A stretch of 64,000 nt of DNA from Candidatus Omnitrophota bacterium (GTDB taxonomy: Bacteria > Omnitrophota > Gorgyraeia > Gygaellales > Profunditerraquicolaceae), in the NCBI GenBank assembly GCA_028717245.1, contig JAQUOD010000002.1, positions 12,772 through 76,771 on the forward strand, read 5' to 3'. Numbering within the stretch: position 1 is the stretch's first letter; every line of letters begins with the position of its first letter. This document shows, piece by piece, positions 2,773 through 30,300 of the stretch. A model generated the notes under the pieces. It made no database searches, had not been told where the DNA came from, and saw nothing but the letters and a program-made list of their open reading frames with translations. A program made the position numbers and the translations under genes.

Positions 2773-3705
2773 CTATTTACGCTTATCTTTTACGTAGTTA
2801 CTCCTCTCCAAACTCTTGGCATAGGATTTTAATTCCGCGCCGATCTCGCCTATCTGAGCCACGTGCTCTATCTTGCGGGATTCGTTTGTGACTACCCCGA
2901 TAGATATGGATACCAAAGGCATTTTTTCTTCTTTTCCCCGCCGGTCGTGGCCGATGATATAACCATTCTTCCTGTCCTTTTCATTATAGAAGGAGGGGGC
3001 TGTCTTTTCAAAATCAGCGATTATCCTTTTACAGAGGTTATCCGCGGTATCAGGCGTAGTAACGATTACAAAATCATCGCCGCCTATATGGCCGATGAAA
3101 TCGTCAGGGTGGCCGAGGTCATGCGTCGCCTGTATTAATATGCGCGCGGTCTGGCGGATTACCTCGTCGCCATGCTCAAAGCCGTAAGTGTCGTTATATG
3201 TCTTAAACTTGTCTAAGTCCAGGTAGCAGACAGCGAAGGGGGCCTTGTTTTCTATGCGGCGGGAAAGTTCATTGAGTATGGAGACATTACCCGGCAGGCG
3301 CGTTAGAGGATTTGCCTCCAGGTCTATTTCCGTGCGCCTTAATACCATATGAATACGGGCTAAGAGTTCTTTAGGCTCAAAAGGCTTGACGATATAATCA
3401 TCCGCGCCGGCGTTAATACCGCCTACCTTGTCGTCTATTTCGCCTTTGCCGGTGACCATGATGATGGGCAAATGCCGTAAAAGTATATCTTTTTTGACTT
3501 CTGCGCAGACCTGGCGGCCGTTCATCTTAGGCATATTGTAATCAAGCAGGACAAGATCCAGCGGTTTAGACCTGATGATGCGCATGGCCTCTTCCCCATC
3601 TTTGGCCTTTAAGATTTCGTAATTCTCCTCGGAGAGGGTGATCTCCAGTACATCCAGGATATCGGGGTCATCATCCGCAAGTAATACTTTCGGTTTAGGC
3701 ACCAA
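2773..3705 (-). CDS. response regulator, REC + GGDEF diguanylate cyclase domain (motif variant GGDDF)
   Basis: N-terminal LLADDD...DYNMP receiver; C-terminal GGDEF-family domain with HIGGDDF. Confidence 0.85.
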   Translation of the reverse strand: MVPKPKVLLADDDPDILDVLEITLSEENYEILKAKDGEEAMRIIRSKPLDLVLLDYNMPKMNGRQVCAEVKKDILLRHLPIIMVTGKGEIDDKVGGINAGADDYIVKPFEPKELLARIHMVLRRTEIDLEANPLTRLPGNVSILNELSRRIENKAPFAVCYLDLDKFKTYNDTYGFEHGDEVIRQTARILIQATHDLGHPDDFIGHIGGDDFVIVTTPDTADNLCKRIIADFEKTAPSFYNEKDRKNGYIIGHDRRGKEEKMPLVSISIGVVTNESRKIEHVAQIGEIGAELKSYAKSLERSNYVKDKRK

Positions 3706-3711
3706 GCCTCC

Positions 3712-5205
3712 TTATGCTAACGGCAGGGTAAAGCTAAAAGTGCTTCCTTTACCCGCTTTACTTTCTACCCAAATCTTTCCATTATGCGCTTCAATAATAT
3801 GCTTTACCAGAGACAGCCCTAACCCCGTGCCTTTGACCTGTTGGTTTATGGCATTATCTACACGGTAAAATTCCTCGAATAACTTAGGAAGCGCATCTTC
3901 AGGTATGCCTACTCCCGTATCGGATATATCCACCTGCACCATTTTATCTTTAGTGTATGCCTTGACGGTTATCCTTCCGTTATCAGGAGTAAATTTGACT
4001 GCATTACTCAGGAGGTTGATGAATACGCGCTCTATCTGGTCGTGGTCCGCCAAAACAAGGGGCAGGCCTTTCTGCACGTCCTGGGTGAGCTTGATATTTT
4101 TATTTTTAGATTGTATTGAGACCAGATCAGAGGCAGCGGCAAGGATGTCTTTTAAGTCCTGCCCCTGCATCTTCATTACTATCCTGCCGGATTCAATGCG
4201 GGCAATATCCAAAAGGTCATTGACCATGTGCACCAGCTCGTCGCTGTGGCGGTTGATTTTTTCCAGGCGTTCTTTCGCCTCGCTAGGCAAATGCCCCAGC
4301 TTTTCAGCGATAAGTATAGCCGCGTAGCCCTTGATAGAAGTGAGGGGGGTCCTTAATTCGTGCGAGACGCTGGAGATAAAATCATTTTTGCGTTTGCTCA
4401 CCTTTTTTATCGCCTCCATAGCCAAAGTCAATTCGCGCGTCCTTTCCTCTACTTTTTTCTCCAGTTCCTGCTGCGCGTTCCAGGTCTTTTCAAATAAACG
4501 GGCGTTTTCCAGCGCCTGGCCGATTTGATTGCTCAAGATGGTAATTAATTCTTCGTCTCCTTCGTTGACGGAGACGTCTGTATTCTCCGTACCCACAAGC
4601 AAGAACCCCTTATTTGCCTCTTTGGCCAGGATAGGCGCTATTACAAAGGAGTCCACCTTAAAGGCCTCGTTTATTTTTTGCCCAAAGGCAATATCTTTAG
4701 ATAACGAGACAGAGGAGAATGCCCTTTCTTTTTTTATCAAATCCAGGTAATTATCTTTATCGGAGTTCACCGTCTGTTGGATTGCCCCGATTTCATCTGC
4801 CGCGTAACCGATATTCAGGCGCAGGGTGAATTTATTTTCTTTTTCGTCCCACAATAAGCCGCAGGCCTTTTCAAAGCCCAATTCCTCAAAAGAAGTCTTC
4901 TCGATGCGCATAAAGATCTGGCTTTCTTCTAGGGTGGTGCTGATTGTCCGGGACAGCCTCTGCAGGGCGTAAAGGCCGGTTATTTTTTTATCCAGTTCTT
5001 CCTGGGCTTTGTTGAGTTCCATATCCGTGCGCACAACCAGCTTAGCCTGCTCGTCCATTTCTTCCAGGGATTTCTTCAGCTGGCCCACAATTATCTGCAG
5101 TTGCTTGACCTTTTCTGTCTTCAGGAAGACGGCGATAACGAGAGAAACAATAGCCAGCAAACCTGCCAGCACGAATATGTTTAAGAAGAGGCCCGGGTTA
5201 TCCAT
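3712..5205 (-). CDS. sensor histidine kinase (TM, GAF-like, HisKA, HATPase_c)
   Basis: SHELRTPL H-box, N/G1/G2 boxes, N-terminal TM helix. Confidence 0.85.
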
Positions 5206-5212
5206 TTTTTCT

Positions 5213-6418
5213 CTAGCCCCCGACGTTTAGAATAGCAATAGCCTGATTATGAAAATATGCCTGGCCCTGGTAACGGATTGCCCTTAAGGGCGCCTGTTCG
5301 CCGTAAGTATAGAGGCCGATTACAGGCGTGTTTTTGCCGAAACCTTCCTTAATGATTTCCAGTTCTAAGGGCGCATCCCTTCTTAATAACATATACCTGG
5401 AGGCCGAGTTAAAGACCAGGATAAAATTTTTTATACCACTCTTCTCCATAGGGCTGGATGAGAGTTTTTTGGCTTCTTCTACTGCCTTTCGGGTCGCAGC
5501 CAGGCAGGATTCTTTTGTGCCGATCATTAATTTTATGGAGCTGCCTTCGGTGATATTGCCCTGCAGGCGCAATGACCCGCTATCGCCTATAGAAAGGACG
5601 TTCCTTAAGATACACTCTTCTTCCTGGGGCATGTCTATGCCTATCGGATAGAGCATGGAGATACGTTTTATTTCCTGGCGTAGCTCGGCTATATTCTTTG
5701 CCAGGTATTCTTCATAGAGCATAGCTGCCGGCCGTTCGTCTATTTCATAAATGATATTGCCTTCTGATTTAGTGACGGTATGGGGTTTACCCAGGCCTTT
5801 CCAGCCATGCCTTAAGCCTAAGCCAAAATTTAATTTTCCGCCCCAGAGTATCCCTGCTGCGGCGTCACTGAGGAGCTCCCGGTTGAAATACAAATAGGTC
5901 TTTAAGAAACGCATATCATCCGAGGCAGAAGCGCCTACTAAGGGTAAACTCCTGCCTAATCTTTCCTGCATTCCGCAGAGCAGCCCGGAACAGTCATCTA
6001 TTAAACCGTCGGAAAAAACTACGCCGAAGCACCTGCGCACATTACGGAAACCATATCCTAATTGTTCGCCCAGTTCCCTCCCGGCATTCAGGGAGCCCTT
6101 TGTTTTTATATCCCTGACGCAGGCAGTGTTAAAATAGACGTTGTCGGAGAAACTTAAAAGCATGATTACCAGGCCGTGTTTAAATATGCCCTGATTAGAA
6201 ATTATGGCTGCGCTGCTACAGCCTAAAAGCGGCACCTCCCCTAAAGAAATACTCAGGGCTTTTAATAAATTAACAGAAGAGAAATTTATAGAGCTGAATA
6301 CAATGGCTAAGTCGATTTTTTCGCTGGCCAGATTATAAGTAGCTGATCTCAGGGCTTCTTTAACGGCGAGGGCAGGGTTCTTTTCTGTGCTTAAGCCCAC
6401 GCCTACATTCATTCCCAT
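5213..6418 (-). CDS. FIST (FIST_N + FIST_C) sensory domain protein, first gene of FIST-HK-RR operon
   Basis: 401 aa, FIST-like architecture; tightly linked to the HK. Confidence 0.6.
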
Positions 6419-10900: not shown

Positions 10901-11105
10901 CCGTCGGTATGGCGATACGCCTTTCTACTTCAGAGGCGGGGATTCCTCCGCGCACATCAATATTGATAGTAATGTCGCCGAATGAGGTATTCGGCATCAT
11001 CTCCACGGGAAGCAGCCGCAAGGCGATTATGCCGATTAGGGCTACGGCAATAAAAAACATGGATACTGCAGTCGGCCTTCTTACGGATAAACTAGGCAGG
11101 CTCAT
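7962..11105 (-). CDS. RND efflux permease (AcrB/MdtC-like), 1047 aa
   Basis: MSLPSLSVRRPTAV start, 12-TM RND topology. Confidence 0.9.
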   Translation of the reverse strand: MSLPSLSVRRPTAVSMFFIAVALIGIIALRLLPVEMMPNTSFGDITINIDVRGGIPASEVERRIAIPTEEAVSSVSHLKNTLSISKEGNATVILEFEPGTNMDFAALEVREKFNRIRNKLPPEIEKPIIAKYEYMDVPIMILAVTSDIRSPEELRKIVDEKIKDRIQRIEGVARAEVAGGRERKILVEVDQYKLQAYGLAINRVVDTININNANLLAGEIKRVKDKYLVRTIGEFQNLDEIRDLAIATTKEGSVVRLRDVAEIKDSYLEPVAYARLNAQPVVSIYVQKESTANTVKISNLINKELKKLRPILEKDINVTPTFNQAETIQQAVNQVQRSLGIGAVLAFLILFVFLRSLNINLIIAVSIPLSILCTFSLMFFSKLTLNVMTLSGLALGVGMLVDCAIVVLDNILKKRDALLNDKDKLAQIFLENKAKETVKELAISGADEMFLAITASTFTTIIIFLPLVFINPEIRMLYSGIALTITYSLLASLLAALTLVPMLAARLKIKVPAAQTEDALTSQTKIPAAQPLPLFVAGKFETFYKKAVSVCLSLRYIIILLVILGSLYALREYKKLEKEFIGIAEQNKFTIFIELPTGTKLEISDKVVAQVEKYISGLPQIKNATSKVEPWSSKIYVELLPLSKRKKPTAQIINELRPFTDNLDPAFIYYEESEEIGTKEILIELYGYDYDVLKGLAVETAQRMQSIPDFTDTKIRMREGRPEMHLNINKRQAAMSGMSVEDIALALHTYMRGLVATRYGGKDKTEGEETETIVRLEEKYRRNFEDLRRIGLINYKGEQIYLSQVADLKSGIGPSEIWRKNKARMVQVSANTGGLALGTAADKVKEALKESKFPNDYFWQFGGNYDKMIRNQRELGFALILSLILVYMILASLFESFSQPFIILMTVPLAAIGAVIALRLADIPVGTGVLIGAIMLGGIVVNNAIVLVDRVNFLRRKHPVDYPTKKGIQEAMVIASYDRLRPIMMTSLTTILGLIPMALDKSESSSLWSPLAITVIGGLTLSTFLTLFVIPCIYLAFKDLQLIREVL

Positions 11106-14100
11106 ATTAATTCATACCATCTTCCCGGCCCCAGCGGCCCCCGGGCTTTAATCAGGCCGTTATCTGCCAACTCTTTTAAATCCCTGGCGGCAGTGGGCAC
11201 GGAGACTTTAAACATCCGCGCGTATTCCTTACGGGTGATTTTCTTAATCTCTTTTAGTTTTATCAAGAGTTCTTGCTGGCGCACGTTTAATTCCCGTTTC
11301 TCAAGGGGAATCTTGGCTTGAGGTTCTACGGCTTCCTCGGGAATTGGCAGAGCAATAGGTTTAATCACCGCAGGCATAGCGGGCGCGGGTAATTTTATTT
11401 CTAAACTGGGCCGGGGGGGAGGAATAATCGGTTCGGGTTCAGGTTTAATTTCTTCGCGCGCAATCTTTATTTCTGGCAGTGGCGGCGGGGTCTCAAAATA
11501 GCCATGCGCCATAAGATATAAAGCCGGGATAAAAACCAGGGTCAAGAATGTCGCTGAAGTTAATCCGCCCATTACGGTAATGGCCAGAGGCGCTTGTAGT
11601 TCTGCGCCTTCTCCGATACCCAGCGCTAATGGCAAGAGCCCTAAGATGGTGGTCAGCGAGGTCATCAGAATCGGCCGCAGCCGATTTTTGCTTGCTTCTA
11701 CCACGGCATCATAAGCAGAATACCCTTGTTTTCTTAAAACATTCACCAAATCAATTAAGACAATGCCGTTATTGACGGCAATCCCGCCTAACATAATAAT
11801 GCCTAAATAGGCCACTGAACTTAAAGGCGTGCGGGTAATAGATAGGGCAAAAGCAACACCGATAAGCGAGAGGGGTATAGTGAACATAATTAAAAAAGGC
11901 TGCCATAAAGACTCAAACTCCCCGGCCATAATCATATAGACTAAAATAAAAGCCAAGGCCATGGCAAAGGCCAGGCTATGGAACGATTCCTTCATCCTCT
12001 GCTGCTCGCCGACTAATTCCAGAGAATAATCTTTAGATACCTTGGCGCCCGCAGAACGGATGATTTTATTTATTTCATTGATTATCTGATTAAAATTGCG
12101 GCCGTAAGTATTGGCGGTTAGGATTATATTCCTTTGCTGGTCAACCCGTTTTATTTCCGTGGGCCCTTTGCCTTTAGTTAAATAAGCCACATCAGATAAG
12201 GAGACATCCATCCCCAATGGCGAGTGAATTAAAAGCCTCCTTAAATTACCTAAGTCACTCCTGTCTTCGGGCCTCAGGCGCACGCGGATATCCACATCCT
12301 CCTGCCCTTGTTTTTCCTTAAACTTAGTAGCCACATAACCCTTGAGGGCGACCTGCGCAGTGACGGCGATATCGCGCACAGAAAGGCCGTAGAGCGAGGC
12401 CTTATCCTTAAGGACATGCAGTTTTGTTTCCGGGCTGGGAGCGGGCATATTACTTTTTATTCCGTAAACGCCGCTAATCTTACTCATTTTAGATTGCAAA
12501 GAGGAGGAGATTTCTATTAATTTATTCAGGTCCGCGCCTTTTATCTCGACGGCAATAGGCGCTCCCTGCTCTAAGGCAGTGCCAAAAGAAGTCTCCTGGG
12601 CAACATATTCTATTTCCGCACCTTCTAAATCCTGTTTTTCCAGCTTATTTTTTAGATACTGGATGACTTCATCGGTGGAGCGCAGGGTATTGAACGCCCG
12701 GGATTTCTTTTTAAGATTCACCATAATCTGGGCCTGATGGCTGCCTAAGGTTTGCAGGGAAGTTGTTTCTGCGGAAGTCCTTTCTGCGCTGGAGCCGATA
12801 TTTACGGTTACATCTTTAGTTTCCGGAAGTTTTAGCAATGAGCCTTCAATTTTTTTTACCACGCTGTCGGTTATCTCTAAGCGCGTGCCCGGGGCGAGCT
12901 CTACTTTAATAATAAATTGACGTTGGTCAACGCGGGGGAGAAACTGCCTTTGCGTCCAGAAGAGGATGACGAACATACTGATAAAAAAAAGCAGAAGGAC
13001 TATGCCGATGACTTTCCCCTTTTGGTGAAGCATGTTAGCGATGAATTTTCCGTAAGCAGATTGCAGGCGCTGGAATTTTTCCTGTATCAGTTTGGTTTTA
13101 TCAACGAGGGCTGTTTCCAGGGATTGTAGCAGCGCCAGAGATTGGGATTTTCTGCGCCGGCCCAAAGAAATTAATACCGGCACTAAAGACAGCGCCACAA
13201 TGATGGAGACGATGAGGGAAAAAGTAATGGTCAGGGAGAGCTGTTTAAAAATCTGGCCCACAACCCCCAGCACAAAAGCAAAAGGTAAGAATACTGCCAC
13301 GGTAGTCAGGGTTGAGCCGATGATGGGGCCGACCATCTCCTGCGTCCCGTCAATACAGGCCTGTATGGGATTCTTCTGCATTTGGCGGTGCCGGAAGATA
13401 TTCTCGATGACCACAATAGAGTTATCCACAAGCATGCCTACTCCCAGAGCCAGCCCGCCTAAGGACATCATATTCAGGTTAATGTTGCTGAAATACATCA
13501 GGCAGAAGGTAGCCATGATAGAAATAGGTATAGAGAAGGTGATGACGCCGGAAGACTTGAATTCCCAGAGGAAAAAGAAGAGCACTAGAAATGCCAGGAA
13601 CGCTCCTTGCACAGCGGCATCGCGCACATTGCTGATCGCCTCCTGGATAAACTGCGATTGGTCATAGGTCACCTGGATCTTTATGCCCTGGGGTAATTTT
13701 TCAGCCAGTAACTTTTGAATTTCTTTTTTTACCCCCTTGACTACATTCAGGGTATTGGTCCCGGATTGTTTTCTGATGACTAAGGATACGCTGTCTTTTC
13801 CGTTATAGCGGGAGATGCTGGTTTTTTCTTTGATGGTGTCTTCTACCTTGGCGATGTCCTTAAGATAGACCAGGCGCCGGCCTTGTTTTTCCTTCTTTTC
13901 TTTTTCTTCCTGCGTCTTGGCTTCTTCTTCGGGCAGGTCCAGGGCAGTAGGGGTCTCCTGGATTTCCGTTACCTTTTGATATTCGCCCATGGTGCGGATA
14001 AGGTATTCATAAAAACTTTCTTTGATGGTCCCCGCCGGATAATTGATGTTTGCCGCCCTGAGGCTATCCACGACGGAGACTATGGGTATCTGCGAAGCGC

Positions 14101-14677
14101 GCAGGCGCGGCTGGTCAATCTCTACCAGGATTTCGCGTTCGTCTCCTCCGGTAATGGTGGCTGAAGCCACGCCTTCTGTTTTTTCAATGGAGTCCTTGAT
14201 ATATTTGCGGCAGATTTCGCGTAACTCTAAAGGAGGCAGGCCCCCGGTAACTGCCAGGTTCATAATCGGCAGGTCAAAAGGGTTATACTTCATGACAATG
14301 GGTTCCTGGGATTCGCGGGGGAGTTTTTCTTTTACCAGGTCTATTTTTTCGCGCACGTTTAAGGCGGCGAAATCCATATTCGTGCCCCAGTTGAATTCCG
14401 CCATCACCAGCGACAGGCCTTCTTTAGAAATGGAGCTTATCCTTTTGACATTATTGACCGTGCCGACAGCTTCCTCAATACTTTTGGTAATCAGGCTTTC
14501 AATTTCTTCGGGAGCGGCATTTTCATAGGCAGTAACTACGGTGATCTGCGGATAGGTGATAGAGGGGAAGAGCTCCTGGGGAAGCCTGCCCCAGGAGATA
14601 AAGCCTAAAAGCACGATGGCCGTAAAAATCATGATGGTGGTAATGGGCCGGTTTACGGAGAGCTTAGGGATATTCAT
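11102..14677 (-). CDS. RND efflux permease (AcrB/MdtB-like) with ~150-aa C-terminal Pro-rich linker + winged-HTH-like tail
   Basis: MNIPKLSVNRPITT RND core; C-terminus ...ITRKEYARMFKVSVPTAARDLKELADNGLIKARGPLGPGRWYELI resembles Fic/DeoR-type wHTH. Confidence 0.85.
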   Translation of the reverse strand: MNIPKLSVNRPITTIMIFTAIVLLGFISWGRLPQELFPSITYPQITVVTAYENAAPEEIESLITKSIEEAVGTVNNVKRISSISKEGLSLVMAEFNWGTNMDFAALNVREKIDLVKEKLPRESQEPIVMKYNPFDLPIMNLAVTGGLPPLELREICRKYIKDSIEKTEGVASATITGGDEREILVEIDQPRLRASQIPIVSVVDSLRAANINYPAGTIKESFYEYLIRTMGEYQKVTEIQETPTALDLPEEEAKTQEEKEKKEKQGRRLVYLKDIAKVEDTIKEKTSISRYNGKDSVSLVIRKQSGTNTLNVVKGVKKEIQKLLAEKLPQGIKIQVTYDQSQFIQEAISNVRDAAVQGAFLAFLVLFFFLWEFKSSGVITFSIPISIMATFCLMYFSNINLNMMSLGGLALGVGMLVDNSIVVIENIFRHRQMQKNPIQACIDGTQEMVGPIIGSTLTTVAVFLPFAFVLGVVGQIFKQLSLTITFSLIVSIIVALSLVPVLISLGRRRKSQSLALLQSLETALVDKTKLIQEKFQRLQSAYGKFIANMLHQKGKVIGIVLLLFFISMFVILFWTQRQFLPRVDQRQFIIKVELAPGTRLEITDSVVKKIEGSLLKLPETKDVTVNIGSSAERTSAETTSLQTLGSHQAQIMVNLKKKSRAFNTLRSTDEVIQYLKNKLEKQDLEGAEIEYVAQETSFGTALEQGAPIAVEIKGADLNKLIEISSSLQSKMSKISGVYGIKSNMPAPSPETKLHVLKDKASLYGLSVRDIAVTAQVALKGYVATKFKEKQGQEDVDIRVRLRPEDRSDLGNLRRLLIHSPLGMDVSLSDVAYLTKGKGPTEIKRVDQQRNIILTANTYGRNFNQIINEINKIIRSAGAKVSKDYSLELVGEQQRMKESFHSLAFAMALAFILVYMIMAGEFESLWQPFLIMFTIPLSLIGVAFALSITRTPLSSVAYLGIIMLGGIAVNNGIVLIDLVNVLRKQGYSAYDAVVEASKNRLRPILMTSLTTILGLLPLALGIGEGAELQAPLAITVMGGLTSATFLTLVFIPALYLMAHGYFETPPPLPEIKIAREEIKPEPEPIIPPPRPSLEIKLPAPAMPAVIKPIALPIPEEAVEPQAKIPLEKRELNVRQQELLIKLKEIKKITRKEYARMFKVSVPTAARDLKELADNGLIKARGPLGPGRWYELI

Positions 14678-18350: not shown

Positions 18351-21300
18351 TTAATAAGTTTTATAACCGTGGTAATACTCTAACGTTAAAGCGCCTAATA
18401 TTCCATAAATAGGGGCTGTCAACGGATTGAAGGTTGTAAACATCCCTGCGGAATCAGCCAAATGTGGCGGAACCCAATGAAGAGTAGCCCCAATATCACT
18501 AAATACACTTTGGGCAGTACCTTTTGAATAAAAAGCACTAACTAAATCAAAGTGCCCACCAATATTATTGCCTTGGAGCATCTTGGCTGCTCCTAAAGCA
18601 GTAAGTGTCATCTCACTATGAAGTCTATAGGTGGTTCCAGGATGTCCCAGCATATATTGTGCCAATTGACGGGAAGCCAAACTATTCTTAAATAACAGTT
18701 GCATGCCTCCGCGAATAATATCTGCTGCAACTCCTCTGGATTGGGTATAAATAACTCTACTGCCTGTTTCATTAGCAACCCGTAACGCTTTTTCTGGGGT
18801 GGTCCCTACCCCTTTACCTCGGACAGCCGGATTTCTAACTCCACCTTCCGGATCTTGAATACTAAGCGGATCATGAAAATAACTATTTATTCCTGTTCCA
18901 ACCACTGTCCCAGCAATGCCTCCCACCAGACCACCGGCAAAGCTATCCCAACTGTTAGTAGCACCGGCTACAAATGCTCCGGTTGCCAGCATCCCGACTA
19001 CAAAAGGGGTTCCGATGTTATAAGCTCCCCACCCGCCAAAAGCCCCTAAGGCGCCTCCAATGCCTGCGCCAATCAGGGCGCCTCTCCAGCCGCCTTCCAG
19101 GCCGCCGGTAACTGCACCTCCGGTCATCCCTCCCCAGAAACCCGCAACTGCCCAGGGTAAGCCAGCGCCAGCAGTAACTACAGCTACTACTGCTCCTACA
19201 AATGCCCCGACAATACTCTTCCAAAAGCTTTTCCAGGACCAGTGCCCTGTGGGGTCAATAGCGTTAATAGGATTATTGTTGCAGTAGGAATAACGGTTTA
19301 GTTCCTGGGGGTTATAGGGACGGGCAACCAAGGTATCCGCACTGATAAACCTCCCCACCTGTGGGTCATAATACCGAGCCCCGTAGAAGTAGAGGCCGGT
19401 TGCATCCAGCTCCTTGCCGTTGAACTTGTATTTAGCAGTATCGCTTCCCTGAACCTTAGCAACTCCTCCGTAAGGCTTATAGCTATTGGTCTGGGTGGCT
19501 TTACCTTGACTGTCGCTGATGACGCTGCTTGAGCCGAGATGATCACTGTGGTAGTAATTAGTCGTTAGTCGTTGGCCGTTAGTCGTTAGTGTGCAGACCC
19601 TGTTTGACCCGGCAAAGATGTGTTTGCGGGTTGTGCCGTCGGAATCTATTTCAAAGAGCGAGCCGATGTAGGTGGTCGTTAGTCGCTGGTCGTTAGTCGT
19701 TAGTGTCTTAACGACACGGCCGCCATCGCCATCGTATACGAACGAGGTAATTATACCGCTCTCATTTACCTGGGTCAAGCGGTTCTCAGCGTCATATTGG
19801 TATTGTTCGCTTCCCTTAGAGATTAAATTGCCGTTGGCGTCATAACTAATAACTGTATTGCCGAATTGAGTAGGCGCATGGGGCCTTGCGCCGTATTGGT
19901 AGCCTATGCCTTCCTTCTCTAAAAGGTTACCAATTGAATCATACCTATAATTCAGCGTCCCGTATTCACCGCTTGCCTTAATCAATCTGTCTAAATCATC
20001 ATATTGGAAAGCCTGTGTAGTGTCTTTTACCTTGTCTTCTATTTTAATGATATTGCCTGAATTATCATAGGTATAGCGCAGCTCCTGCAGGACTTCGTTA
20101 TTATTTTGATTCAGAGTGACGATGAGTGAGATTTGCGAGGTATTGGGGAGATAGCGGTAGTAAGTGGTGGTGCCATTGCCGTATTCTATCTTTAAAGTTT
20201 GGCCTGATGCGGCATAATCTATATTTTTTACAAAGACCGTAGAGTCCGTCTGGCTGTAAACCTTCTTGAGCTGGCCTGCTTTATTGTATTCATAGCTGAT
20301 TATTTCCCCGTCAGGATATTTCAGGGAAGTTAATCTGTCTAAAACATCGTAGGTGCGCTCAACGAGATATTGCTGTTCAGGGACAGTCCCCTTGGTTTCA
20401 ATTGAGTTAGATATCTGCGGGGACAGTCCCTTCACTGACTTGATTTCTCTGCCTAAGTTGTCATAGAAGAATTCGGTGGAGCCGGATTGGTCAATGACCT
20501 TGGAGAGCCGGCCGATAGAGTTTTCTTTTGTTAAATCATCGTAGGTATAGGCGGCTAAGGCCTCAGTAACAGCCCCCTGGCTGGGGATGAGCCCCTGTTT
20601 ACGCGTAAGGCGGTTTAGGGCGTCGTATTCAAAAGTAAGGATTTGGCCTTTGGCATCGGTTTGTTTGATTAAATTTCCCACAGCGTCGTATTCATAAGTC
20701 CAGGTTCCCATATCAGGGTCTTGCATTTTTATTTTCCTGCCTAAAGAATCATAAAAGATTTGGCTGGTATTTTTCTGGTTATCCACTACTTTTATCAGGC
20801 TATCCAAAGCATTGTATTCGTAATGGGTGGTATAAACTTCTGCTGCGTTGTATTCTTTTACCTCCACAATCCTGGCATAGGCATCAAAATATTCTTCTTT
20901 TTTATGGTTATTCTCGTCTATATAGGTAACTTTCCAGTCAGAGTAAATAGTTTGGGCATATGTCCCTTCGGGTTTGGTTATTTTAATTAATCTTCCCTTG
21001 GGGTCATAATCAAATTCAAACTTAGCTAAAGCAGTTAAATCGCTCGTATCAGGTTTATCGTTTACTTCAAAAGTATAATAAGCATTATATTTTTCTCGGA
21101 CATTCCCGCGGCTATCAAAGGTTACCCTGCCTGAAACTATTTGACGGGCTTTTTGAATTTGCGGGTCATCTTCTGCCGGAGATTTTATCTGCATAAGCCT
21201 GCCTAAACCGTCGTAAAAAGAGTAGGAGGTAAGATAGTTATTATTCTCGGCTTTTACCTTTTTGGTAACGCGATAAGGCAGGTTAGATAAATCATAATCG

Positions 21301-24300
21301 TAGATAACGCCGGGTGAGTCTTGCGTATCATTAGGGCCAATGGCTTTTATTAGGCGGTAGAGACTATCATAGACATAGGTTGTAGTTTGATTATTCAAGT
21401 CAGTAGTGGTCAGCACCAGGCCGCTTTTTAAATCAAAGGTCTTCTTGACGGTCTGGCCTAAAACATTGGTTGCCTTAATCGGATAGGTATAAGTCTGGGT
21501 ATCGTATTCCGTAGTAGTTGTCCTTCCCAAGGCATCAGTAGTTGAAATAAGGTTACCGTAAGAATCGTAAGTAAAAGTTGTGGCTAAGTATTTTTCCTCA
21601 CTGGTTAAAGGATTAAACAGCCAGGCCTCTTCTTTGGTAAGCAGGCCCTTAGCCGGAGCCTGGTTAATATCAGTTGTATTATCATAATAGAAGCGTTTTT
21701 CAGAAACTTTTTGTTGGTTGTATAAAAGAGAAGTGCGCTTAGGAAGCGCAATTGCCCAGTCAGAAGTGTTATAAGCATATTCGGTAGTTTGCGTCTTATC
21801 GTCTTCAATGATATCCACGTCACCATAATATATAACCTTGGTAGTATTGCCGTAATTATCATATTCAAATTCTGTGCGGGCATGTTTATAGCTTGCGTCA
21901 CCGTCATAGGTAAAATTATCGGCTGAGGAAAGATAGACAAAATAAACGCCCGGGTAAATTTCCGTATGCTGCCAGACATTTTCTATCTTAGAGTATAAGT
22001 TTCCGTCTTTATTTTTAAATTCCTGTTCATAGAGGCGGCCTTTATAGATGTTGTCCTGCTTAAAATAACTTTCTGTATAATTACCGTCGGCATCGCTGAC
22101 CTTGACATAGCTAAAGCCGCGGAACTCCCGCTCTTTTGGCTCAAAATAACCGTCTTTATAAAAATAAGTTGTAGGATAGGAATTGCCCTGGTTGTCTTCC
22201 AGGGTGAGCCTTGAGACAAGCTGCAGGCTAAAAGGGAGCTTACCGGTTTTATTGGGATAATAATTTTCATATTGAGTAGAAGAGGTATATTCAATTTTAG
22301 CCTTTGCGCCTAAGCCATTTGCGACTTCTACTAAAAGGTCGGCAGGTCCGGATAAATTTAGATAGGTCTTTTTATAACCGTCTTTGGCAATACAGATATC
22401 CATTAAACCATCCCCGTTTAAATCGGTTAAATAACGGGCCTGGTCGCGGCCCTGGCTATCCACAAAATCTCCGTCTGTAATATTAAAGGAGTCGTCTCTC
22501 CTCCAGCCTGAGCCAGTGTTTAAGTAAGTGGCGCGGTAACCGTCTTTAGCAATTAGCAAATCATTCAGGCCGTCTGCGTTTATATCTATCAGCACCCTTC
22601 CCTGGTTAACGCCGTTTTCGGTAAAATTACCGTCGGGAAGATTAAAGGCGTCATTCCTCACCCAGCCCGAGCCGGTATTAAGATAAGTAGCCTTATAGCC
22701 GTCAGCCGCGACTAAAAAGTCAGCTAAACCGTCGCCGTTGACATCCGCTAAGCGCCTTCCATTATCGCCTGATGCCGTAACATAATAACCGTCAGGCGAA
22801 TTCCAGCGCGCATCTTGCTGCCAGCCGCTTCCGGTATTAATATAAGTGGTGGTTGTCCGGGATATCACGTCAAGCGGCCGATAACTCCAATGTATCTCGT
22901 CAACGGCAATGGATAAGTCATTCAAGCCGTCGCCATTAAGGTCAGCGAATCTTATCCCGCCGTCTATGTGGTTACCATAAACAAAATATCCTTCAGGTAA
23001 ATTCCAGCTCGTATCTTTAAACCATTGAGGGTCAATGTTGTCAAGGTACTGAAAGGAGTAAGCATCTTTATATTGCCCGCCTGAACCCAGATACGGGTCC
23101 CAGAGCGCAGCTGCTAATAATTCGGGCATGCCGTCGCCGGTTAAATCTACGAGCCTGCGCCCGTCATCCCAGGTATTATAGATAAAATAACCCAAAGGTA
23201 CCGGCCACCAGTTGGGCTGCGAACTAAAACCCTGCGTGGAATTAAGATATGTAGCTTTTAACCACTGGCGGTCTGTTGATTCGTTGGGGTCGTAACGGGA
23301 GACAATAAAGTCATATAAACCATCGCCGTTTAAATCATAAAGCCCCCTGCCCTGGTTTTGTTCGGATTTGATAAAATCTCCGTCGGGGATATGCCACTGC
23401 GGCTGGTCGCCAGACCAAGCGCCGGAATTAGAACGATAGGAAAAAGTCAAAGGAGGCTGTGCGGTTTGGCCGTCAGAGCCATATTCGGTTACCTTGGTTA
23501 AGAGGCTCCTTGAGGTGGAAGGGCTTTGGGTATATTCAAGGCCGTATCTGCGTACCAGGTTATTATCAAAAGAGACCTCAATACTCTTTAGCCGTTTAAG
23601 CAGTTTTATTGGTTCGCCGGTAATATAGCTTAAAGATGTATCCGGCCTGGGTTCATAGGCGAAAGTAACTTTATAGCTTGCCGCAAGCTGAGTCTGCGCG
23701 TTTGCAGTATAGGAGATATTCAAAGGATAAAGGGTATTCTCTTCTTTAGAGTAACTGATGGTTAGATAATTACCTTCTAAATCCATCACCTTATCCAATG
23801 CCCAGGAAAAAATGCCTTTTGAGGTCGTGATGCGCGAGTTATCCGTCGAGCCGAAGAAATATTTTATTCCCTGCTTATCAGTTGTCTGCCAGGAAGCGCC
23901 GTCATAAACATATTTTATGAAACTGCCTTCAATTTCAGCCCTGTATTCATTATTGCCTGTGCTTATCAGTTCCTGGCTTTGGGCAATAAAGGCATCAGAG
24001 GAATTATAATCAGGAACGCCGCCTTTAGTAGAACGGTAAATACTGCCCAAATCTAAATCCCAGCCTTTTCCGGCTAATCCGTTGCCTTTAAGACTGCTGT
24101 AGGAGAGCGCTAAGTGCGGCTCTATCCCGTTTCTGCCTGCCGGAGTTTGTACCGGGATAGAGAATGTTGCCTGCCCGGTTAAAAGGTCAACGCCCAAATT
24201 TTCCAGCCCGTTTGAACTTTTGGGAACATCAGGGGAAGCGGTATCCGCAGAGACCGGCTCTTGATAATCCTCTTCGCTTAATTCATCCGATAATTCCGTA

Positions 24301-26411
24301 GGTATAGGGCTTTTAGAAAAAGATTGGACCACTTTAAAAGTCATTACCGCGCTCCAGTTGCTTTCCCCCTCGGTTTTTACTACCTTTACGCGCGCATAGT
24401 AATTCCCCGCCGTATCTAATTCGCTTAATTCGAGGGAATTAGAAGCCGATTCATAAGCTTTGGGGTTTTTAAAGTCAGCATCGGTAGAGATTTCTACTTT
24501 GTAATTTGTCGCCCCTGCTATTGCACTCCAATTTATCTTAGTAGTGCTTTGGAGCAGAGTATCATTAACCGCTTCTAATACGGGCGCGGTTATTGCAGGA
24601 GGAATAGGCGCAGGAGGAGTAGGCGGGTTGGGTGTTGGTGGTGGTGGGGTTGGGGGAATACCGCCTCCGCTACCACCAGAACCAGAAGTAGGTTGTTTGG
24701 GAGGAGGCGGCGGATTAACAACGTTAACGCTTAACTCACCCGTAGATGGATCCCGATTAATTTCTATGGTATTGCCGGTAGCAGGGTCTTTGTAGCTTTT
24801 ATCAGTCTCGCCGGGAGCTAAATCTATCTGGATTCCTTTAACTATTGCCCTTGCGCTGCCATCAGGATAAGCAGCGCGTGTGATAGTATCACCATTTACA
24901 TCCTTGGTAGAAGTATAGCCTAACCCTTTATTATTGCTGTAGGTAATATTGCCATTAGCGTCTATTTTAGTCTCGCTACGATAATCATCAGGGCCAACTG
25001 TTGTTTTTGTAATGCTGCCGTCGGGATGAGAGGTTGTTGTGGCCACGCTTCCGTCATCGCCATATGTTATCGTCGGCGTAGCGGTGCTACCACCGCTATT
25101 ACTGTTTACGCTCCTCTGTCCGCCTGTGGATGATATAGCTGGGGGTGTTGTTTGCGTTCCGCTTCCGTTAGAATTAACAATGGTAGTGGAATAACCACCA
25201 TTGCTATCGTAAGTGTTAGTTACGGTAGTGCCGGCTAAGGAACCGCCACTGCTTGCCGGATGATTATCCACAGTACTTGTAACCGCACCACCCGGGCTTG
25301 CATAGGTGATAGTCCTGGTGCTACCATCAGCATAGGTAGCAACGCCGGTATTGCCATTTCTCACAAGAGTTATGCCTCCGTTTGCCGCACCTGCGCCAAA
25401 AAGAGTTGTTGTCTCGCCATCCGAACCCCAAATTCCTTGCGTTTGACTGACGCTTAAGGCCTGGCCAATACCTGCCTCGGTGGTCAGGGCATATCCTATC
25501 CATTGGGCAGTGAATTCAGCTAATGATACGGTTTTTGTGATACTGTTATCTATATAGGTAATGCCTTCAACATCAATTCCGGTCACTACTACATAGTGGC
25601 CAAGGCCATTTCCTAAGTCTAAATGGGCAATTGCCGGTTGATTTAGATTTTTGAGGTCAGTAAGGGAGAGTTGGCTGGCGTAAAGATCCAAACCATATTC
25701 TTTGGCTACTTGCTGGATTCCATAGAGAGAGGTCTGGCCGTCTTGAGTATATAAGGCCAAGCTTTTAGCCAATATAGCGGAGTTGACATTAGACAAGAGT
25801 TGGGAGAGTGCGTAGACTGCGCAGTTCGGGATTGGAGGGCCGTGGTTATAAAGGTCAGCTTGGTACGTATTTATAACTGCTTTCTGTTCTTCGGGTTGAA
25901 TTCGTACGCTTTGGTTATTTTGGGGCTTTATGGCAGTGTCCTTATTTACCTGGCCATAAACTGGTATAGAATTTCCCTTTAGGCCCGCTACTAATTTGTC
26001 TTTTATGGGTTGAGGCTGGGTTTGCGGTGCAGGTGCGGATTGACTGGTGGCATCTATTGGTTTTACGGGTGTTTCTACGAAAACCGTATTATTTAAGTTA
26101 ACCGTTTGTTTGGCAGGTTTAAAGGATTGGGAATACGAAGCTGGCATAACGCCGGGATTATCATTCAAACAAGACGATATTTCCTCTGCATGCGCTAGGG
26201 GGACTATAAAAGAGGCTATTCCTTGGTAAATATTCCATAAAAAATCCCCCAATTTCGGTTGGGGGATTTGCGGGTAGCTAGTTTGCTCGGTTTGCGGCAG
26301 AGATATATGGTAGTCTGCTCTGGCTGCCCAGGTGACCTCGGAAAATAAAAACACTCCGGAAATAGTCAGGGCAACAATTTTTAACCACAATCTTTGACGT
26401 AAAGGATTCAT
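18351..26411 (-). CDS. giant RHS/Tc-toxin-like polymorphic toxin (~2686 aa): signal/TM, C39-like peptidase domain, Pro-rich linker, FN3, SpvB/TcaC N-terminal domain, FG-GAP/VCBS repeats, YD-repeat RHS shell, ...DPTGHW core end, Gly-rich hydrophobic + variable C-terminal toxin domain
   Basis: ORF track 18351..26435 starts at TTG; the ATG at 26411 (MNPLRQRLW) has a AAAGGGGA RBS; motifs NCAVYAL/GHYVVV (C39-like), DLNGDGL x6, many YD repeats, RYYDPQVGRFISADT...NPINAIDPTGHW. Confidence 0.85.
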   Translation of the reverse strand: MNPLRQRLWLKIVALTISGVFLFSEVTWAARADYHISLPQTEQTSYPQIPQPKLGDFLWNIYQGIASFIVPLAHAEEISSCLNDNPGVMPASYSQSFKPAKQTVNLNNTVFVETPVKPIDATSQSAPAPQTQPQPIKDKLVAGLKGNSIPVYGQVNKDTAIKPQNNQSVRIQPEEQKAVINTYQADLYNHGPPIPNCAVYALSQLLSNVNSAILAKSLALYTQDGQTSLYGIQQVAKEYGLDLYASQLSLTDLKNLNQPAIAHLDLGNGLGHYVVVTGIDVEGITYIDNSITKTVSLAEFTAQWIGYALTTEAGIGQALSVSQTQGIWGSDGETTTLFGAGAANGGITLVRNGNTGVATYADGSTRTITYASPGGAVTSTVDNHPASSGGSLAGTTVTNTYDSNGGYSTTIVNSNGSGTQTTPPAISSTGGQRSVNSNSGGSTATPTITYGDDGSVATTTSHPDGSITKTTVGPDDYRSETKIDANGNITYSNNKGLGYTSTKDVNGDTITRAAYPDGSARAIVKGIQIDLAPGETDKSYKDPATGNTIEINRDPSTGELSVNVVNPPPPPKQPTSGSGGSGGGIPPTPPPPTPNPPTPPAPIPPAITAPVLEAVNDTLLQSTTKINWSAIAGATNYKVEISTDADFKNPKAYESASNSLELSELDTAGNYYARVKVVKTEGESNWSAVMTFKVVQSFSKSPIPTELSDELSEEDYQEPVSADTASPDVPKSSNGLENLGVDLLTGQATFSIPVQTPAGRNGIEPHLALSYSSLKGNGLAGKGWDLDLGSIYRSTKGGVPDYNSSDAFIAQSQELISTGNNEYRAEIEGSFIKYVYDGASWQTTDKQGIKYFFGSTDNSRITTSKGIFSWALDKVMDLEGNYLTISYSKEENTLYPLNISYTANAQTQLAASYKVTFAYEPRPDTSLSYITGEPIKLLKRLKSIEVSFDNNLVRRYGLEYTQSPSTSRSLLTKVTEYGSDGQTAQPPLTFSYRSNSGAWSGDQPQWHIPDGDFIKSEQNQGRGLYDLNGDGLYDFIVSRYDPNESTDRQWLKATYLNSTQGFSSQPNWWPVPLGYFIYNTWDDGRRLVDLTGDGMPELLAAALWDPYLGSGGQYKDAYSFQYLDNIDPQWFKDTSWNLPEGYFVYGNHIDGGIRFADLNGDGLNDLSIAVDEIHWSYRPLDVISRTTTTYINTGSGWQQDARWNSPDGYYVTASGDNGRRLADVNGDGLADFLVAADGYKATYLNTGSGWVRNDAFNLPDGNFTENGVNQGRVLIDINADGLNDLLIAKDGYRATYLNTGSGWRRDDSFNITDGDFVDSQGRDQARYLTDLNGDGLMDICIAKDGYKKTYLNLSGPADLLVEVANGLGAKAKIEYTSSTQYENYYPNKTGKLPFSLQLVSRLTLEDNQGNSYPTTYFYKDGYFEPKEREFRGFSYVKVSDADGNYTESYFKQDNIYKGRLYEQEFKNKDGNLYSKIENVWQHTEIYPGVYFVYLSSADNFTYDGDASYKHARTEFEYDNYGNTTKVIYYGDVDIIEDDKTQTTEYAYNTSDWAIALPKRTSLLYNQQKVSEKRFYYDNTTDINQAPAKGLLTKEEAWLFNPLTSEEKYLATTFTYDSYGNLISTTDALGRTTTTEYDTQTYTYPIKATNVLGQTVKKTFDLKSGLVLTTTDLNNQTTTYVYDSLYRLIKAIGPNDTQDSPGVIYDYDLSNLPYRVTKKVKAENNNYLTSYSFYDGLGRLMQIKSPAEDDPQIQKARQIVSGRVTFDSRGNVREKYNAYYTFEVNDKPDTSDLTALAKFEFDYDPKGRLIKITKPEGTYAQTIYSDWKVTYIDENNHKKEEYFDAYARIVEVKEYNAAEVYTTHYEYNALDSLIKVVDNQKNTSQIFYDSLGRKIKMQDPDMGTWTYEYDAVGNLIKQTDAKGQILTFEYDALNRLTRKQGLIPSQGAVTEALAAYTYDDLTKENSIGRLSKVIDQSGSTEFFYDNLGREIKSVKGLSPQISNSIETKGTVPEQQYLVERTYDVLDRLTSLKYPDGEIISYEYNKAGQLKKVYSQTDSTVFVKNIDYAASGQTLKIEYGNGTTTYYRYLPNTSQISLIVTLNQNNNEVLQELRYTYDNSGNIIKIEDKVKDTTQAFQYDDLDRLIKASGEYGTLNYRYDSIGNLLEKEGIGYQYGARPHAPTQFGNTVISYDANGNLISKGSEQYQYDAENRLTQVNESGIITSFVYDGDGGRVVKTLTTNDQRLTTTYIGSLFEIDSDGTTRKHIFAGSNRVCTLTTNGQRLTTNYYHSDHLGSSSVISDSQGKATQTNSYKPYGGVAKVQGSDTAKYKFNGKELDATGLYFYGARYYDPQVGRFISADTLVARPYNPQELNRYSYCNNNPINAIDPTGHWSWKSFWKSIVGAFVGAVVAVVTAGAGLPWAVAGFWGGMTGGAVTGGLEGGWRGALIGAGIGGALGAFGGWGAYNIGTPFVVGMLATGAFVAGATNSWDSFAGGLVGGIAGTVVGTGINSYFHDPLSIQDPEGGVRNPAVRGKGVGTTPEKALRVANETGSRVIYTQSRGVAADIIRGGMQLLFKNSLASRQLAQYMLGHPGTTYRLHSEMTLTALGAAKMLQGNNIGGHFDLVSAFYSKGTAQSVFSDIGATLHWVPPHLADSAGMFTTFNPLTAPIYGILGALTLEYYHGYKTY
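25420..26411. repeat. inverted duplication arm 1 (5' ~1 kb of RHS gene), partner at 29291-30300
   Basis: ~85-90% nt identity when reverse-complemented, e.g. AAAATTGTTGCCCTGAC...GGGCAGCCAGAGCAGACTACC. Confidence 0.7.
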
Positions 26412-26464
26412 TTTGCTTGAGTCCCCTTTCGTCAATATAATTAAAACTCAAATAACTAATATAA

Positions 26465-28734: not shown

Positions 28735-29061
28735 ATGCGTTGTAAGATCTGTCAAAATGAGTTTAAACCTAATAAATACCGGCCTCAACAGCAGGTTTGT
28801 TCTCAACCGGAATGCCAAAAGCAGAGGCAGCTTCAGAATGAAAGGGGATGGCGGCTGAAAAACCCCGATTATTTCAAGTCTTTAGGGCAAGAAGCGTTCT
28901 GGCGGGAAAAACGCTCTCAATACCGTAGATTATGGAAGAAAAAACACAAAAAACACCTCAAAGAATATGCCGAAAAGCGCAAAAAAGAGCACCAGGAATA
29001 TATGCGCAAATATATGGCCGGATACCGCGCAACCCAGAATGTTAATAGAGAAAAAAGTTAG
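28735..29061 (+). CDS. small zinc-ribbon protein with highly basic C-terminal half
   Basis: CKICQ..CSQPEC motifs; 108 aa; ORF track. Confidence 0.5.
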   Translation: MRCKICQNEFKPNKYRPQQQVCSQPECQKQRQLQNERGWRLKNPDYFKSLGQEAFWREKRSQYRRLWKKKHKKHLKEYAEKRKKEHQEYMRKYMAGYRATQNVNREKS

Positions 29062-29071
29062 TTTTTCTACC

Positions 29072-29100
29072 TTGACAAACACCTATCCATTCAGTATACT
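29072..29100 (+). promoter_or_regulatory. consensus sigma70 promoter TTGACA-17-TATACT upstream of riboswitch leader of the giant gene
   Basis: exact -35, 17-nt spacer, TATACT -10. Confidence 0.55.
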
Positions 29101-29163
29101 TTAGATGTAAGTTAAATTTTTTTCCGCTATTTGTAAGCAGTTTCACAAAGTATTTTTATACCT

Positions 29164-29252
29164 GAGCGATAAAGGCAAACCCGCCGCAAGGCGGGGGCGC
29201 AAAGCCACGGATCCGACGGTAAATTCACTACGGATGGCCGGGTTACCGAAAT
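29164..29252 (+). ncRNA. c-di-GMP-I (GEMM-like) riboswitch aptamer
   Basis: GGCAAACC + GNRA(GCAA)-capped hairpin CCGCC/GGCGG + GCGCAAAGCC + second hairpin + GGGTTACCGA, matching hallmark GEMM elements in order and spacing. Confidence 0.65.
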
Positions 29253-29277
29253 AAGGTAACTCGGCTTTTTTATTAAA
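29240..29277 (+). terminator. riboswitch expression platform: hairpin GGTTACC-gaaataa-GGTAAC followed by CTTTTTTATT, 14 nt upstream of the TTG start
   Basis: 5' arm GGTTACC is also the 3' end of the aptamer, giving mutually exclusive structures. Confidence 0.55.
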
Positions 29278-29290
29278 AAGCGAGGCTAAA

Positions 29291-30300
29291 TTGAGTAACT
29301 GGCGAGAAAAAATCTGGTTAAAAATTGTTGCCCTGACCATTGCCGGAGTATTTTTATTTTCCGAAACCACCTGGGCAGCCAGAGCAGACTACCGCGTATC
29401 TATGCCTGAAACCGAGCAAACAAGCTACCCGCAAGTCCCCCAACCGAAATTGGGGGATTTTTTATTGAATATTTATCACGAAATAGCCTCTTTTATAGTC
29501 CCTTCAGCTCAAGCGGCTGAAATAGCGCCTTGCGGTGTAGATAAAGTAACTAAGAATATGCCTGTCTTAAATCCCAATTCTAATTGGCAAAAAGCCAATC
29601 AAACCGTAGTTTTATCAGAAAATAAGGCAATTGATACGGTTGATACAGTTGATACGGTTAAAAATAGCTTAATTGAAGAAACTGGAGATATGAGAGTAGC
29701 TGAAGCTGAGCAGAAGCCGCAAGGAGATGCGCCAGCGCCAACCCCAACGGTTAAGGATTCCGCGCTTCCTGCCCAAGCTCAGCCGCCTCAAGGTTCCGAG
29801 ACTCCCTCTGTCCCCGTAGATTACACTAAGATTAATAATACCAACGATCAAACCGGCTTTATTCCGATTAAACAAGCTCAATTACCTCAAGAAACCGCAG
29901 CGATTACTTTACATAGCAAGGATCCGCCTAAGATGAGCTTCAACTGCGCAGTCTCCGCACTCTCTCAACTCTTGTCAGATGTCAACTCCGCTATATTGGC
30001 TAAAAGCCTGGCCTTATATACTCAAGACGGCCAGACCTCTCTCTATGGAATCCAGCAAGTAGCCAAAGAATATGGTTTGGATCTTTACGCCAGCCAACTC
30101 TCCCTTACTGACCTCAAAAATCTAAATCAACCCGCAATTGCCCATTTAGACTTAGGAAATGGCCTTGGCCACTATGTAGTAGTGACCGGAATTGATGTTG
30201 AAGGCATTACCTATATAGATAACAGTATCACAAAAACCGTATCATTAACTGAATTCACTGCCCAATGGACAGGATATACGCTTACTACCGAGGCAGGTAT
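29291..30300. repeat. inverted duplication arm 2 (5' ~1 kb of giant plus-strand gene)
   Basis: see arm 1; encodes same TM + Pro-rich + C39-like module. Confidence 0.7.

Follow-up and report, generated by a model that had tools for sequence, protein, structure and literature searches.

Giant genes of 10,000 to more than 100,000 codons have recently come to notice as a curiosity of the uncultivated Omnitrophota. One such gene begins at position 29291 of a stretch of 64,000 nucleotides (nt) from a Candidatus Omnitrophota bacterium (contig JAQUOD010000002.1); this stretch is here called the window, and all positions refer to it unless a different locus is named. The locus raises the question whether the untranslated leader in front of the giant gene is a riboswitch and, if so, which ligand it would sense and in which direction it would act. 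Sequence comparison and folding models indicate that the leader is probably a canonical class-I (GEMM-I) riboswitch for cyclic dimeric guanosine monophosphate (c-di-GMP) acting as a transcriptional ON switch, a reading to which we assign a probability of roughly 85%.

The entire window was compared with the 4227 families of Rfam 15 using cmscan at gathering thresholds. Two matches were obtained, a tRNA and a full-length riboswitch at 29165-29251 on the plus strand, the latter belonging to clan CL00126 (c-di-GMP-I) with 73.9 bits and an E-value of 1.2e-15. This E-value refers to the whole 64 kb, and the match is far beyond chance. The first-pass annotation had described the leader as a c-di-GMP-I riboswitch on the basis of its sequence elements, and the Infernal scan was strongly positive for this clan. 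A permissive cmscan of 29000-29400 yielded nothing further of note besides the riboswitch. With a covariance model of our own (R1), built from 20 distinct aptamers, the window's copy reached 89.5 bits. All elements named in the first-pass annotation were found where it had placed them or close by, all on the plus strand: GGCAAACC at 29174-29181, the GCAA-capped hairpin CCCGCC-GCAA-GGCGGG (P1b) at 29180-29195, GCGCAAAGCC at 29197-29206, the second hairpin (P2) at 29203-29244 and GGGTTACCGA at 29240-29249. In the Rfam alignment the closing helix P1 is formed by C29167-G29248 and G29168-C29247, and P1a by 29175-29176 with 29199-29200.

The aptamer segment by itself, that is before the 3′ arm of the terminator described below is transcribed, folds into the aptamer with -30.4 kcal/mol. 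When the Rfam-derived structure was laid over the alignment of 20 distinct relatives, 95.5% of the cells were paired, compared with 29-48% in slid controls, and none of 500 shuffles reached the observed values. Double changes were seen at 8 of the 20 pairs, concentrated in P1b and P1a. The two-hairpin architecture, consisting of P1a/P1b and P2 and closed by P1, is thus supported by covariation, and the compensatory changes across the 20 sequences indicate purifying selection on the aptamer structure.

For the binding site, residues of the Vibrio cholerae riboswitch Vc2 were assigned to Rfam columns by a mapping of our own. The equivalent of Vc2 G20 is G29174, unpaired and directly 5′ of P1a in the Rfam alignment; that of A47 is A29201, unpaired, just 3′ of P1a and an A also in the RF01051 consensus; and that of C92 is C29246, unpaired and directly 5′ of the 3′ strand of P1. 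All three nucleotides lie on the plus strand and are invariant in the 20 relatives. In Vc2, G20, A47 and C92 are the three residues that contact the ligand (PMC4744006, PMC5888326), G20 via its Hoogsteen face with one ligand guanine (PMC5888326, PMC4744006) and C92 in a Watson-Crick pair with the other (PMC5888326). Moreover, C29198 and G29237 occupy the bulge positions expected for the interhelical pair C44-G83 of Vc2, and the tetraloop is GCAA.

Directly behind the aptamer, an intrinsic terminator was detected by a terminator scan at 29236-29272 (plus strand). Its stem of 12 pairs is formed by GGCCGGGTTACC (29236-29247) and GGTAACTCGGCT (29255-29266) and is followed by TTTTTT at 29267-29272. 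The 5′ arm of the terminator consists of the 3′ strand of P2, the equivalents of A91 and C92 and the first base of the 3′ strand of P1. Because this arm lies wholly within the 3′ strands of P2 and P1, the bound aptamer and the terminator are mutually exclusive, and the alternative pairing that had been proposed from the letters alone was borne out by folding. The minimum-energy fold of the full leader has -56.8 kcal/mol and includes the terminator, whose hairpin alone accounts for -20.6 kcal/mol, whereas enforcing the aptamer on the full leader gives -45.3 kcal/mol, at a cost of about 11.5 kcal/mol. The Shine-Dalgarno sequence at 29282-29285 lies outside both structures. An equivalent hairpin and T-run overlapping the aptamer 3′ strand are present in 21 of 21 homologous loci, and in 19 sequences the terminator pairing was found in 97.4% of the cells as opposed to 19-57% in slid controls.

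From this arrangement we infer the following course of regulation. A strong and probably constitutive promoter at 29072-29100 would start a leader of about 184 nt. In the absence of ligand, the aptamer 3′ strand GGCCGGGUUACC would pair with GGUAACUCGGCU to give the intrinsic terminator, and most transcripts would stop at the U-run near 29272. If c-di-GMP were bound by G29174, A29201 and C29246, P2 and P1 would stay closed, the 5′ arm of the terminator would be unavailable and RNA polymerase would read into the giant gene, which extends over more than 34.7 kb. The giant gene would then be expressed in a state of high c-di-GMP, perhaps during attachment or attack.

A further terminator-like hairpin, CCCCCAACCGAAATTGGGGG with a T-run, is located inside the open reading frame (ORF) at 29437-29463 on the plus strand, about 145 nt into the coding region, where the encoded residues are PQPKLGDFL. 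The sequence CCCCCAACCGAAATTGGGGG is identical in a paralog of the giant gene within the window (minus strand, about 26250-26280), locus L152 has the same stem with a different loop, and most other homologs are without it. This hairpin may act as a second point of attenuation, or its presence may be a coincidence of coding.

The arrangement recurs at homologous genes. On the contigs of three homologs (L003, L004 and L005) an aptamer of the c-di-GMP-I clan is found directly 5′ of the homologous gene, two being labelled RF01051 and one RF03167; L004 is additionally syntenic with the window in its genes for a resistance-nodulation-division (RND) pump, its TolC-TonB_C gene and a small ORF. The same arrangement precedes an ORF longer than 2,166 codons in L043, a locus found via the RNA pattern in a named Omnitrophota metagenome-assembled genome (MAG). 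L004, L005 and L043 are all loci of named Omnitrophota MAGs and share the arrangement of the window. For a test unbiased by the RNA, metagenome contigs were searched with a degenerate DNA pattern for W-R-x-K-[IL]-W-x-K-x-V-A, a motif of the N-terminus of the giant protein. The 34 matches comprised 27 true homologs, recognised by the conserved N-terminus and a long ORF, and 7 chance matches. With R1, an aptamer was detected directly 5′ of the gene start in 25 of the 27 true homologs and in none of the 7 chance loci; the two exceptions are L148, in which the 5′ half of the aptamer is missing, and the second, minus-strand paralog of L156. In L148 (minus strand, gene start at position 3777 of the reverse complement) the first aptamer hairpin is absent, three tandem repeats resembling AAGCCACGGAT are present and the terminator is kept. 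The distal part of P2 contains a second GCCACGG motif in 8 of the 20 intact relatives. Together with the repeats of L148, this motif suggests a duplication of the 5′ strand of P2 in the lineage.

The promoter and the translation start form part of the conserved module. A sigma-70-type promoter, with TTGACA at 29072-29077, a spacer of 17 nt and TATACT at 29095-29100 on the plus strand, matches the consensus at 11 of 12 positions and was the top-scoring promoter-like site of the region in a consensus scan. This is the promoter claimed in the first-pass annotation, which gave the leader about 190 nt; the distance from the predicted transcription start near 29107 to the start codon TTG at 29291-29293 is about 184 nt. 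Of 21 homologous loci, 19 keep the motif TTGAC[AT]-17-TATACT at 56-87 nt 5′ of the aptamer. Direct reading of the plus strand places the Shine-Dalgarno sequence GAGG and the TTG codon within 29282-29293; the position of the start codon is kept among the relatives, with ATG, GTG or TTG used there.

Ahead of the aptamer, the leader is AT-rich (29107-29161, plus strand) and contains a T-run at 29117-29123, the imperfect inverted repeat GCTATTTGTAAGCAG at 29126-29140 and CAAAGTATTTTT at 29146-29157. A MAFFT alignment of 19 loci showed three blocks to be kept in this region, namely the T-run, TATTTGTAAATAG, which is the consensus of the imperfect inverted repeat, and TTT..CAAAGTATTT. The conserved blocks between 29117 and 29157 might serve as an operator for a protein or as an element of the RNA. 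In L136, L141 and L148 an additional hairpin with a T-run was observed between the predicted transcription start and the aptamer.

Several observations weigh against a canonical c-di-GMP ON switch. No tetraloop receptor is recognisable in P2 of the window's copy, and P1 is short, with 2 canonical pairs in the Rfam alignment. Covariation of the terminator is weak, since among the 19 sequences one double change and mostly one-sided changes were found; because the shuffle control was not significant, the terminator is argued for by conservation and energetics, not by covariation. The best Rfam label of the aptamer is a variant family, which is argued below to be an artefact. Thermodynamic folding does not take in co-transcriptional kinetics, on which the direction of the switch in vivo, ON or OFF, depends. 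Finally, the paralog in the window, which has the same N-terminal module as the giant protein, possesses its own promoter-like site and no riboswitch, so that riboswitch control is not obligatory for this protein family.

The label bears on the possibility that the RNA is a genuine c-di-GMP-I-GGC variant (RF03167) with a ligand different from c-di-GMP. The GGC and UAU variants were reportedly defined by Weinberg et al. in PNAS in 2017, and to our knowledge the ligand of the GGC variant is not settled. With 73.9 bits (gathering score 59), RF03167 is the top label given by cmscan and outcompetes RF01051 in the clan filter, by which the full-length RF01051 score of the window is masked. The consensus lines of the two families differ at a single position of the conserved core, GACGCAAAgCc in RF01051 versus GACGCGAAgCc in RF03167, and from this comparison we take the G to be what the name GGC denotes. 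The window reads GCAAAGCC, and A29201 thus mismatches RF03167 at exactly this position and matches the canonical class, as does the A found at the equivalent position in all 20 relatives. As a control, genome loci were chosen with the pattern AAAGSCAA...CGSAAAGCCACGGRTC, which fixes A at the variant-defining position, and 18 of them were submitted to cmscan; 13 were labelled RF03167 and 5 RF01051 (loci L006-L029 and L043). Because 13 of 18 A-bearing controls received it, the label RF03167 reflects the competition of a short, narrow model with a longer one and not the genotype of the binding site. An identical sequence truncated at a contig end (L002) passes the gathering score of RF01051 with 37.1 bits versus 35, covering model positions 1-40 only, and the near homologs L003, L004 and L025, which precede the same gene family, are labelled RF01051. 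Membership in the GGC variant was therefore rejected, the defining G being replaced by A29201 and the score not being diagnostic, and the RNA was filed as a canonical c-di-GMP-I aptamer because its variant-defining nucleotide is the canonical A, G29174 and C29246 are canonical as well and L002 passes RF01051. A true GGC variant with a different ligand is accordingly regarded as highly improbable. More generally, RF03167 and RF01051 labels that stem from clan competition in cmscan or from automated annotation are unreliable as calls of ligand specificity unless position 47 is checked. The variant c-di-GMP-I-UAU (RF03168), whose name we read as U at positions 20 and 92, was rejected owing to G29174 and C29246. 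Separately, a Deltaproteobacteria MAG (L026, 3775-5109, minus strand) was observed to carry 3 aptamers of the c-di-GMP-I clan within 1.3 kb, one labelled RF03168 (71 bits) and two RF03167. A different cyclic dinucleotide, for example 3′3′-cyclic GMP-AMP (cGAMP) as in GEMM-Ib, or promiscuous sensing would be another departure from the canonical class. The RNAs of GEMM-Ib that are selective for cGAMP are said, in the 2015 work of Kellenberger and of Nelson, to have A at position 20 (G20A). As the window has G29174 at this position, an invariant G in the 20 relatives, membership in the cGAMP type was rejected; A47 and C92 are canonical too. GEMM-I scaffolds do switch specificity via few changes (PMC7266159) and the GGDEF protein encoded in the window has an atypical GGDDF motif, but in view of the canonical contact residues a ligand of this kind is again considered a very slim prospect.

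The RNA could also bind c-di-GMP and regulate in the opposite direction, or mainly by translational or Rho-dependent means instead of via the intrinsic terminator. The kinetic caveat given above leaves room for this, as do the second terminator-like hairpin inside the ORF at 29437-29463 and the complex platforms which some characterised c-di-GMP-I switches such as Bc1 possess (PMC11218506). However, the 5′ arm of the terminator lies entirely in the aptamer 3′ strands and does not permit coexistence with the bound aptamer, the Shine-Dalgarno sequence is outside both structures, and this geometry is kept in all 21 loci, so that OFF, translational or Rho-dependent control appears improbable. Lastly, the element might be a decaying or non-functional relic, with the leader acting as a merely constitutive attenuator. 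Such decay is suggested by L148, where the terminator remains although the 5′ half of the aptamer is gone, and both the minus-strand paralog of L156 and the paralog in the window are without an aptamer. The copy in front of the giant gene, in contrast, has every conserved core nucleotide, scores as high with R1 as any relative and belongs to a set of sequences in which the compensatory changes indicate selection on structure; a relic is the least credible of these explanations and is extremely unlikely. A canonical c-di-GMP aptamer that prevents termination when bound thus continues to be the preferred reading.

The gene behind this putative ON switch is an ORF with 11,570 or more codons (29291-64000, plus strand), which has no stop through 64000 and is open at the window end. 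The predicted protein starts with a signal or anchor-like segment, MSNWREKIWLKIVALTIAGVFLFSETTWAAR, and matches in Pfam 4 Peptidase_C39 domains, the first at residues 218-334, and one Peptidase_M50 domain, in addition to weak matches to FHA and DUF3703; a hydrophobicity scan revealed about 20 strongly hydrophobic segments. The gene thus probably encodes a membrane-anchored protein bearing C39 peptidase domains. Neither GGDEF nor EAL nor PilZ was convincingly detected in its first 11,570 residues by regular expressions and Pfam. Proteins neighbouring the giant gene are identical to NCBI entries of Candidatus Omnitrophota/Omnitrophica MAGs from a contig of 271,845 nt, for which the proteins MDD4980039.1 and MDD5592075.1 are listed, and contigs of this MAG were also seen in SRR22315506 and SRR22315508. 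For the first 800 residues of the giant protein, the best homologs come from Omnitrophota MAGs. A search of genome contigs with the first 500 residues gave no confirmed relative, this part being too divergent for seeding with exact peptides. C39 domains near an N-terminal signal peptide have been described for Omnitrophota giant proteins (West-Roberts et al. 2023 preprint; 10.64898/2026.06.07.730766), and the protein of the window agrees with the published features in its origin, its very long ORF, its N-terminal C39 domain by a signal-like segment and its many hydrophobic segments.

In the window itself a single aptamer copy is present, and ahead of the paralog and of the TolC-like gene no second aptamer above 7 bits was found with the speed filters off. 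In the related loci fetched via the N-terminus of the giant protein, 21 of 47 aptamer hits are extra copies, with one to three per locus (L128, L131, L132, L135, L144, L153 and L154 among others). Every extra aptamer has its own terminator overlapping GCCGGGTTRCCGA, and most are followed, at a distance of 30-65 nt, by a gene whose product has a signal peptide and no Pfam domains. These proteins have about 320-750 amino acids (aa) and include, for instance, a family starting with ..AEDYPxGYxGPGYREYL...; for 7 such secreted proteins Pfam returned nothing for 6 and a weak FlgE_D2 match for one. Tandem pairs occur in L154 (8512-8633 and 8703-8819) and L153 (528-738 and 923-1069), where the upstream copy is followed by a second aptamer and not by a gene. 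The extra aptamers suggest a local c-di-GMP riboswitch regulon. It is a tentative and rather doubtful extension of this that a dense, lineage-specific regulon exists, in which near-consensus promoters with ON-type c-di-GMP-I switches behind them would gate giant C39-type proteins together with adjoining clusters of uncharacterised secreted proteins. If this were true, c-di-GMP would be the master signal by which host-dependent or predatory nanobacteria commit to a giant surface apparatus, and the terminated leaders, being abundant, might act as a c-di-GMP buffer too, a role proposed for the merRNA of Bdellovibrio.

The first-pass annotation had also connected the riboswitch with signalling genes in the window. 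A FIST gene (5213-6418), a GAF-histidine kinase gene (3712-5205) and a REC-GGDEF gene (2773-3705), all on the minus strand, are indeed present, but their connection with the riboswitch is circumstantial, as about 23-26 kb separate them from it, they lie on the opposite strand and the GGDEF motif is non-canonical. The intervening stretch holds a tRNA, an RND pump operon, an IS200 transposase gene and a large toxin gene. The REC-GGDEF protein has GGDDF instead of GG(D/E)EF, its Pfam match covers profile positions 5-118 of 161, and its activity as a diguanylate cyclase is uncertain. The genome accordingly encodes GGDEF-domain signalling proteins, from which no specific link to the riboswitch follows.

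Other genes of the window were noted in passing. The paralog of the giant gene (18351-26435, minus strand, probable start ATG at 26412) encodes 2,694 aa with a C39 peptidase, SpvB, TcdB_toxin_midN, FG-GAP and RHS repeats. Its N-terminal 75 residues are almost identical to those of the giant protein (MNPLRQRLWLKIVALTISGVFLFSEVTWAARADYHISLPQTEQTSYPQIPQPKLGDFLWNIY), and the common N-terminal module may be an export or anchoring signal. A small ORF of 108 aa (28735-29061, plus strand) ends 10 nt before the -35 box; it starts with a zinc-ribbon-like CxxC...CxxxC motif and has a very basic tail rich in K and R. Neither Pfam nor the sequences of the PDB yielded a match to it. Across 19 homologous loci, the 3′ end of this ORF with its stop codon (TGTTAACAGAnACAAAAGTTAG) is kept 5′ of the promoter; L001 and L004 have a small ORF resembling it ahead of the gene. 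Its product may be a nucleic-acid-binding partner of the locus. In the AcrB-type RND permease (11102-14677, minus strand, 1,191 aa), residues 1133-1177 of an extension at the C-terminus match HTH_DeoR with an E-value of 6e-5. The same faint match was seen in the syntenic Omnitrophota locus L004, and such a fusion is unusual for an efflux pump.

Among known systems, the Bc2 RNA of Bacillus thuringiensis BMB171, which is located upstream of the collagen adhesion protein gene cap, was experimentally shown to be a c-di-GMP-I ON switch acting by anti-termination (PMC4933901). The leader of the giant gene resembles it in the succession of a class-I aptamer and a terminator that ligand binding would prevent, in the logic of repression and de-repression and in the large cell-surface protein encoded behind it. 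It differs in its host, Omnitrophota instead of Bacillota, and in being known from sequence alone, and in place of a cell-wall-anchored adhesin its gene, at least 11,570 codons long, specifies a multi-pass membrane protein that carries C39 and M50 domains. With Vc2 (RF01051) it has in common two hairpins closed by P1, of which the first ends in a GNRA tetraloop, and the equivalents of G20, A47 and C92; C29198 and G29237 would correspond to the interhelical pair C44-G83. Unlike Vc2, it carries a GCAA instead of a GAAA tetraloop, has no evident 11-nt receptor in P2 and a short P1, and employs an intrinsic terminator as its platform. The GGC variant gives the top covariance score and has a similar periphery without the receptor segment of the RF01051 consensus, whereas A29201 stands in the window where that variant has its defining G.

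For the predator Bdellovibrio bacteriovorus, merRNA is reportedly a massively expressed c-di-GMP riboswitch RNA with no regulated ORF behind it, for which a role as a c-di-GMP sponge was proposed. In both cases the bacterium is predatory or host-dependent and has a c-di-GMP-I aptamer, and the strong promoter and terminator of the window would likewise give abundant short riboswitch transcripts; unlike merRNA, the aptamer is here directly followed by a conserved ORF. The GEMM-Ib riboswitches of Geobacter are commonly ON switches with terminators before genes for extracellular or surface proteins. These riboswitches for c-AMP-GMP have a common scaffold with the RNA of the window (PMC7266159), which differs from them by G versus their A at position 20.

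The class of the RNA, its binding site and the mechanism of an ON switch are already known and ordinary. Within the literature that could be searched, publications on Omnitrophota giant genes contain no mention of a riboswitch, and searches for Omnitrophota or Omnitrophica in combination with riboswitch or c-di-GMP returned nothing relevant; the conserved link between a riboswitch and a family of giant genes of the Omnitrophota therefore appears to be unreported in this literature. Published work on these giant genes has described PilZ genes downstream of them and GGDEF domains within them, and the riboswitch fits this association. The value of the finding consists in a handle on the expression of giant genes rather than in a new mechanism. 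The test system is portable because the promoter and leader of about 260 nt can be assayed in vitro or in Escherichia coli without cultivating the organism. A conserved ligand-gated switch in front of one family of giant genes leads to the testable hypothesis that expression of these genes would be licensed by high c-di-GMP.

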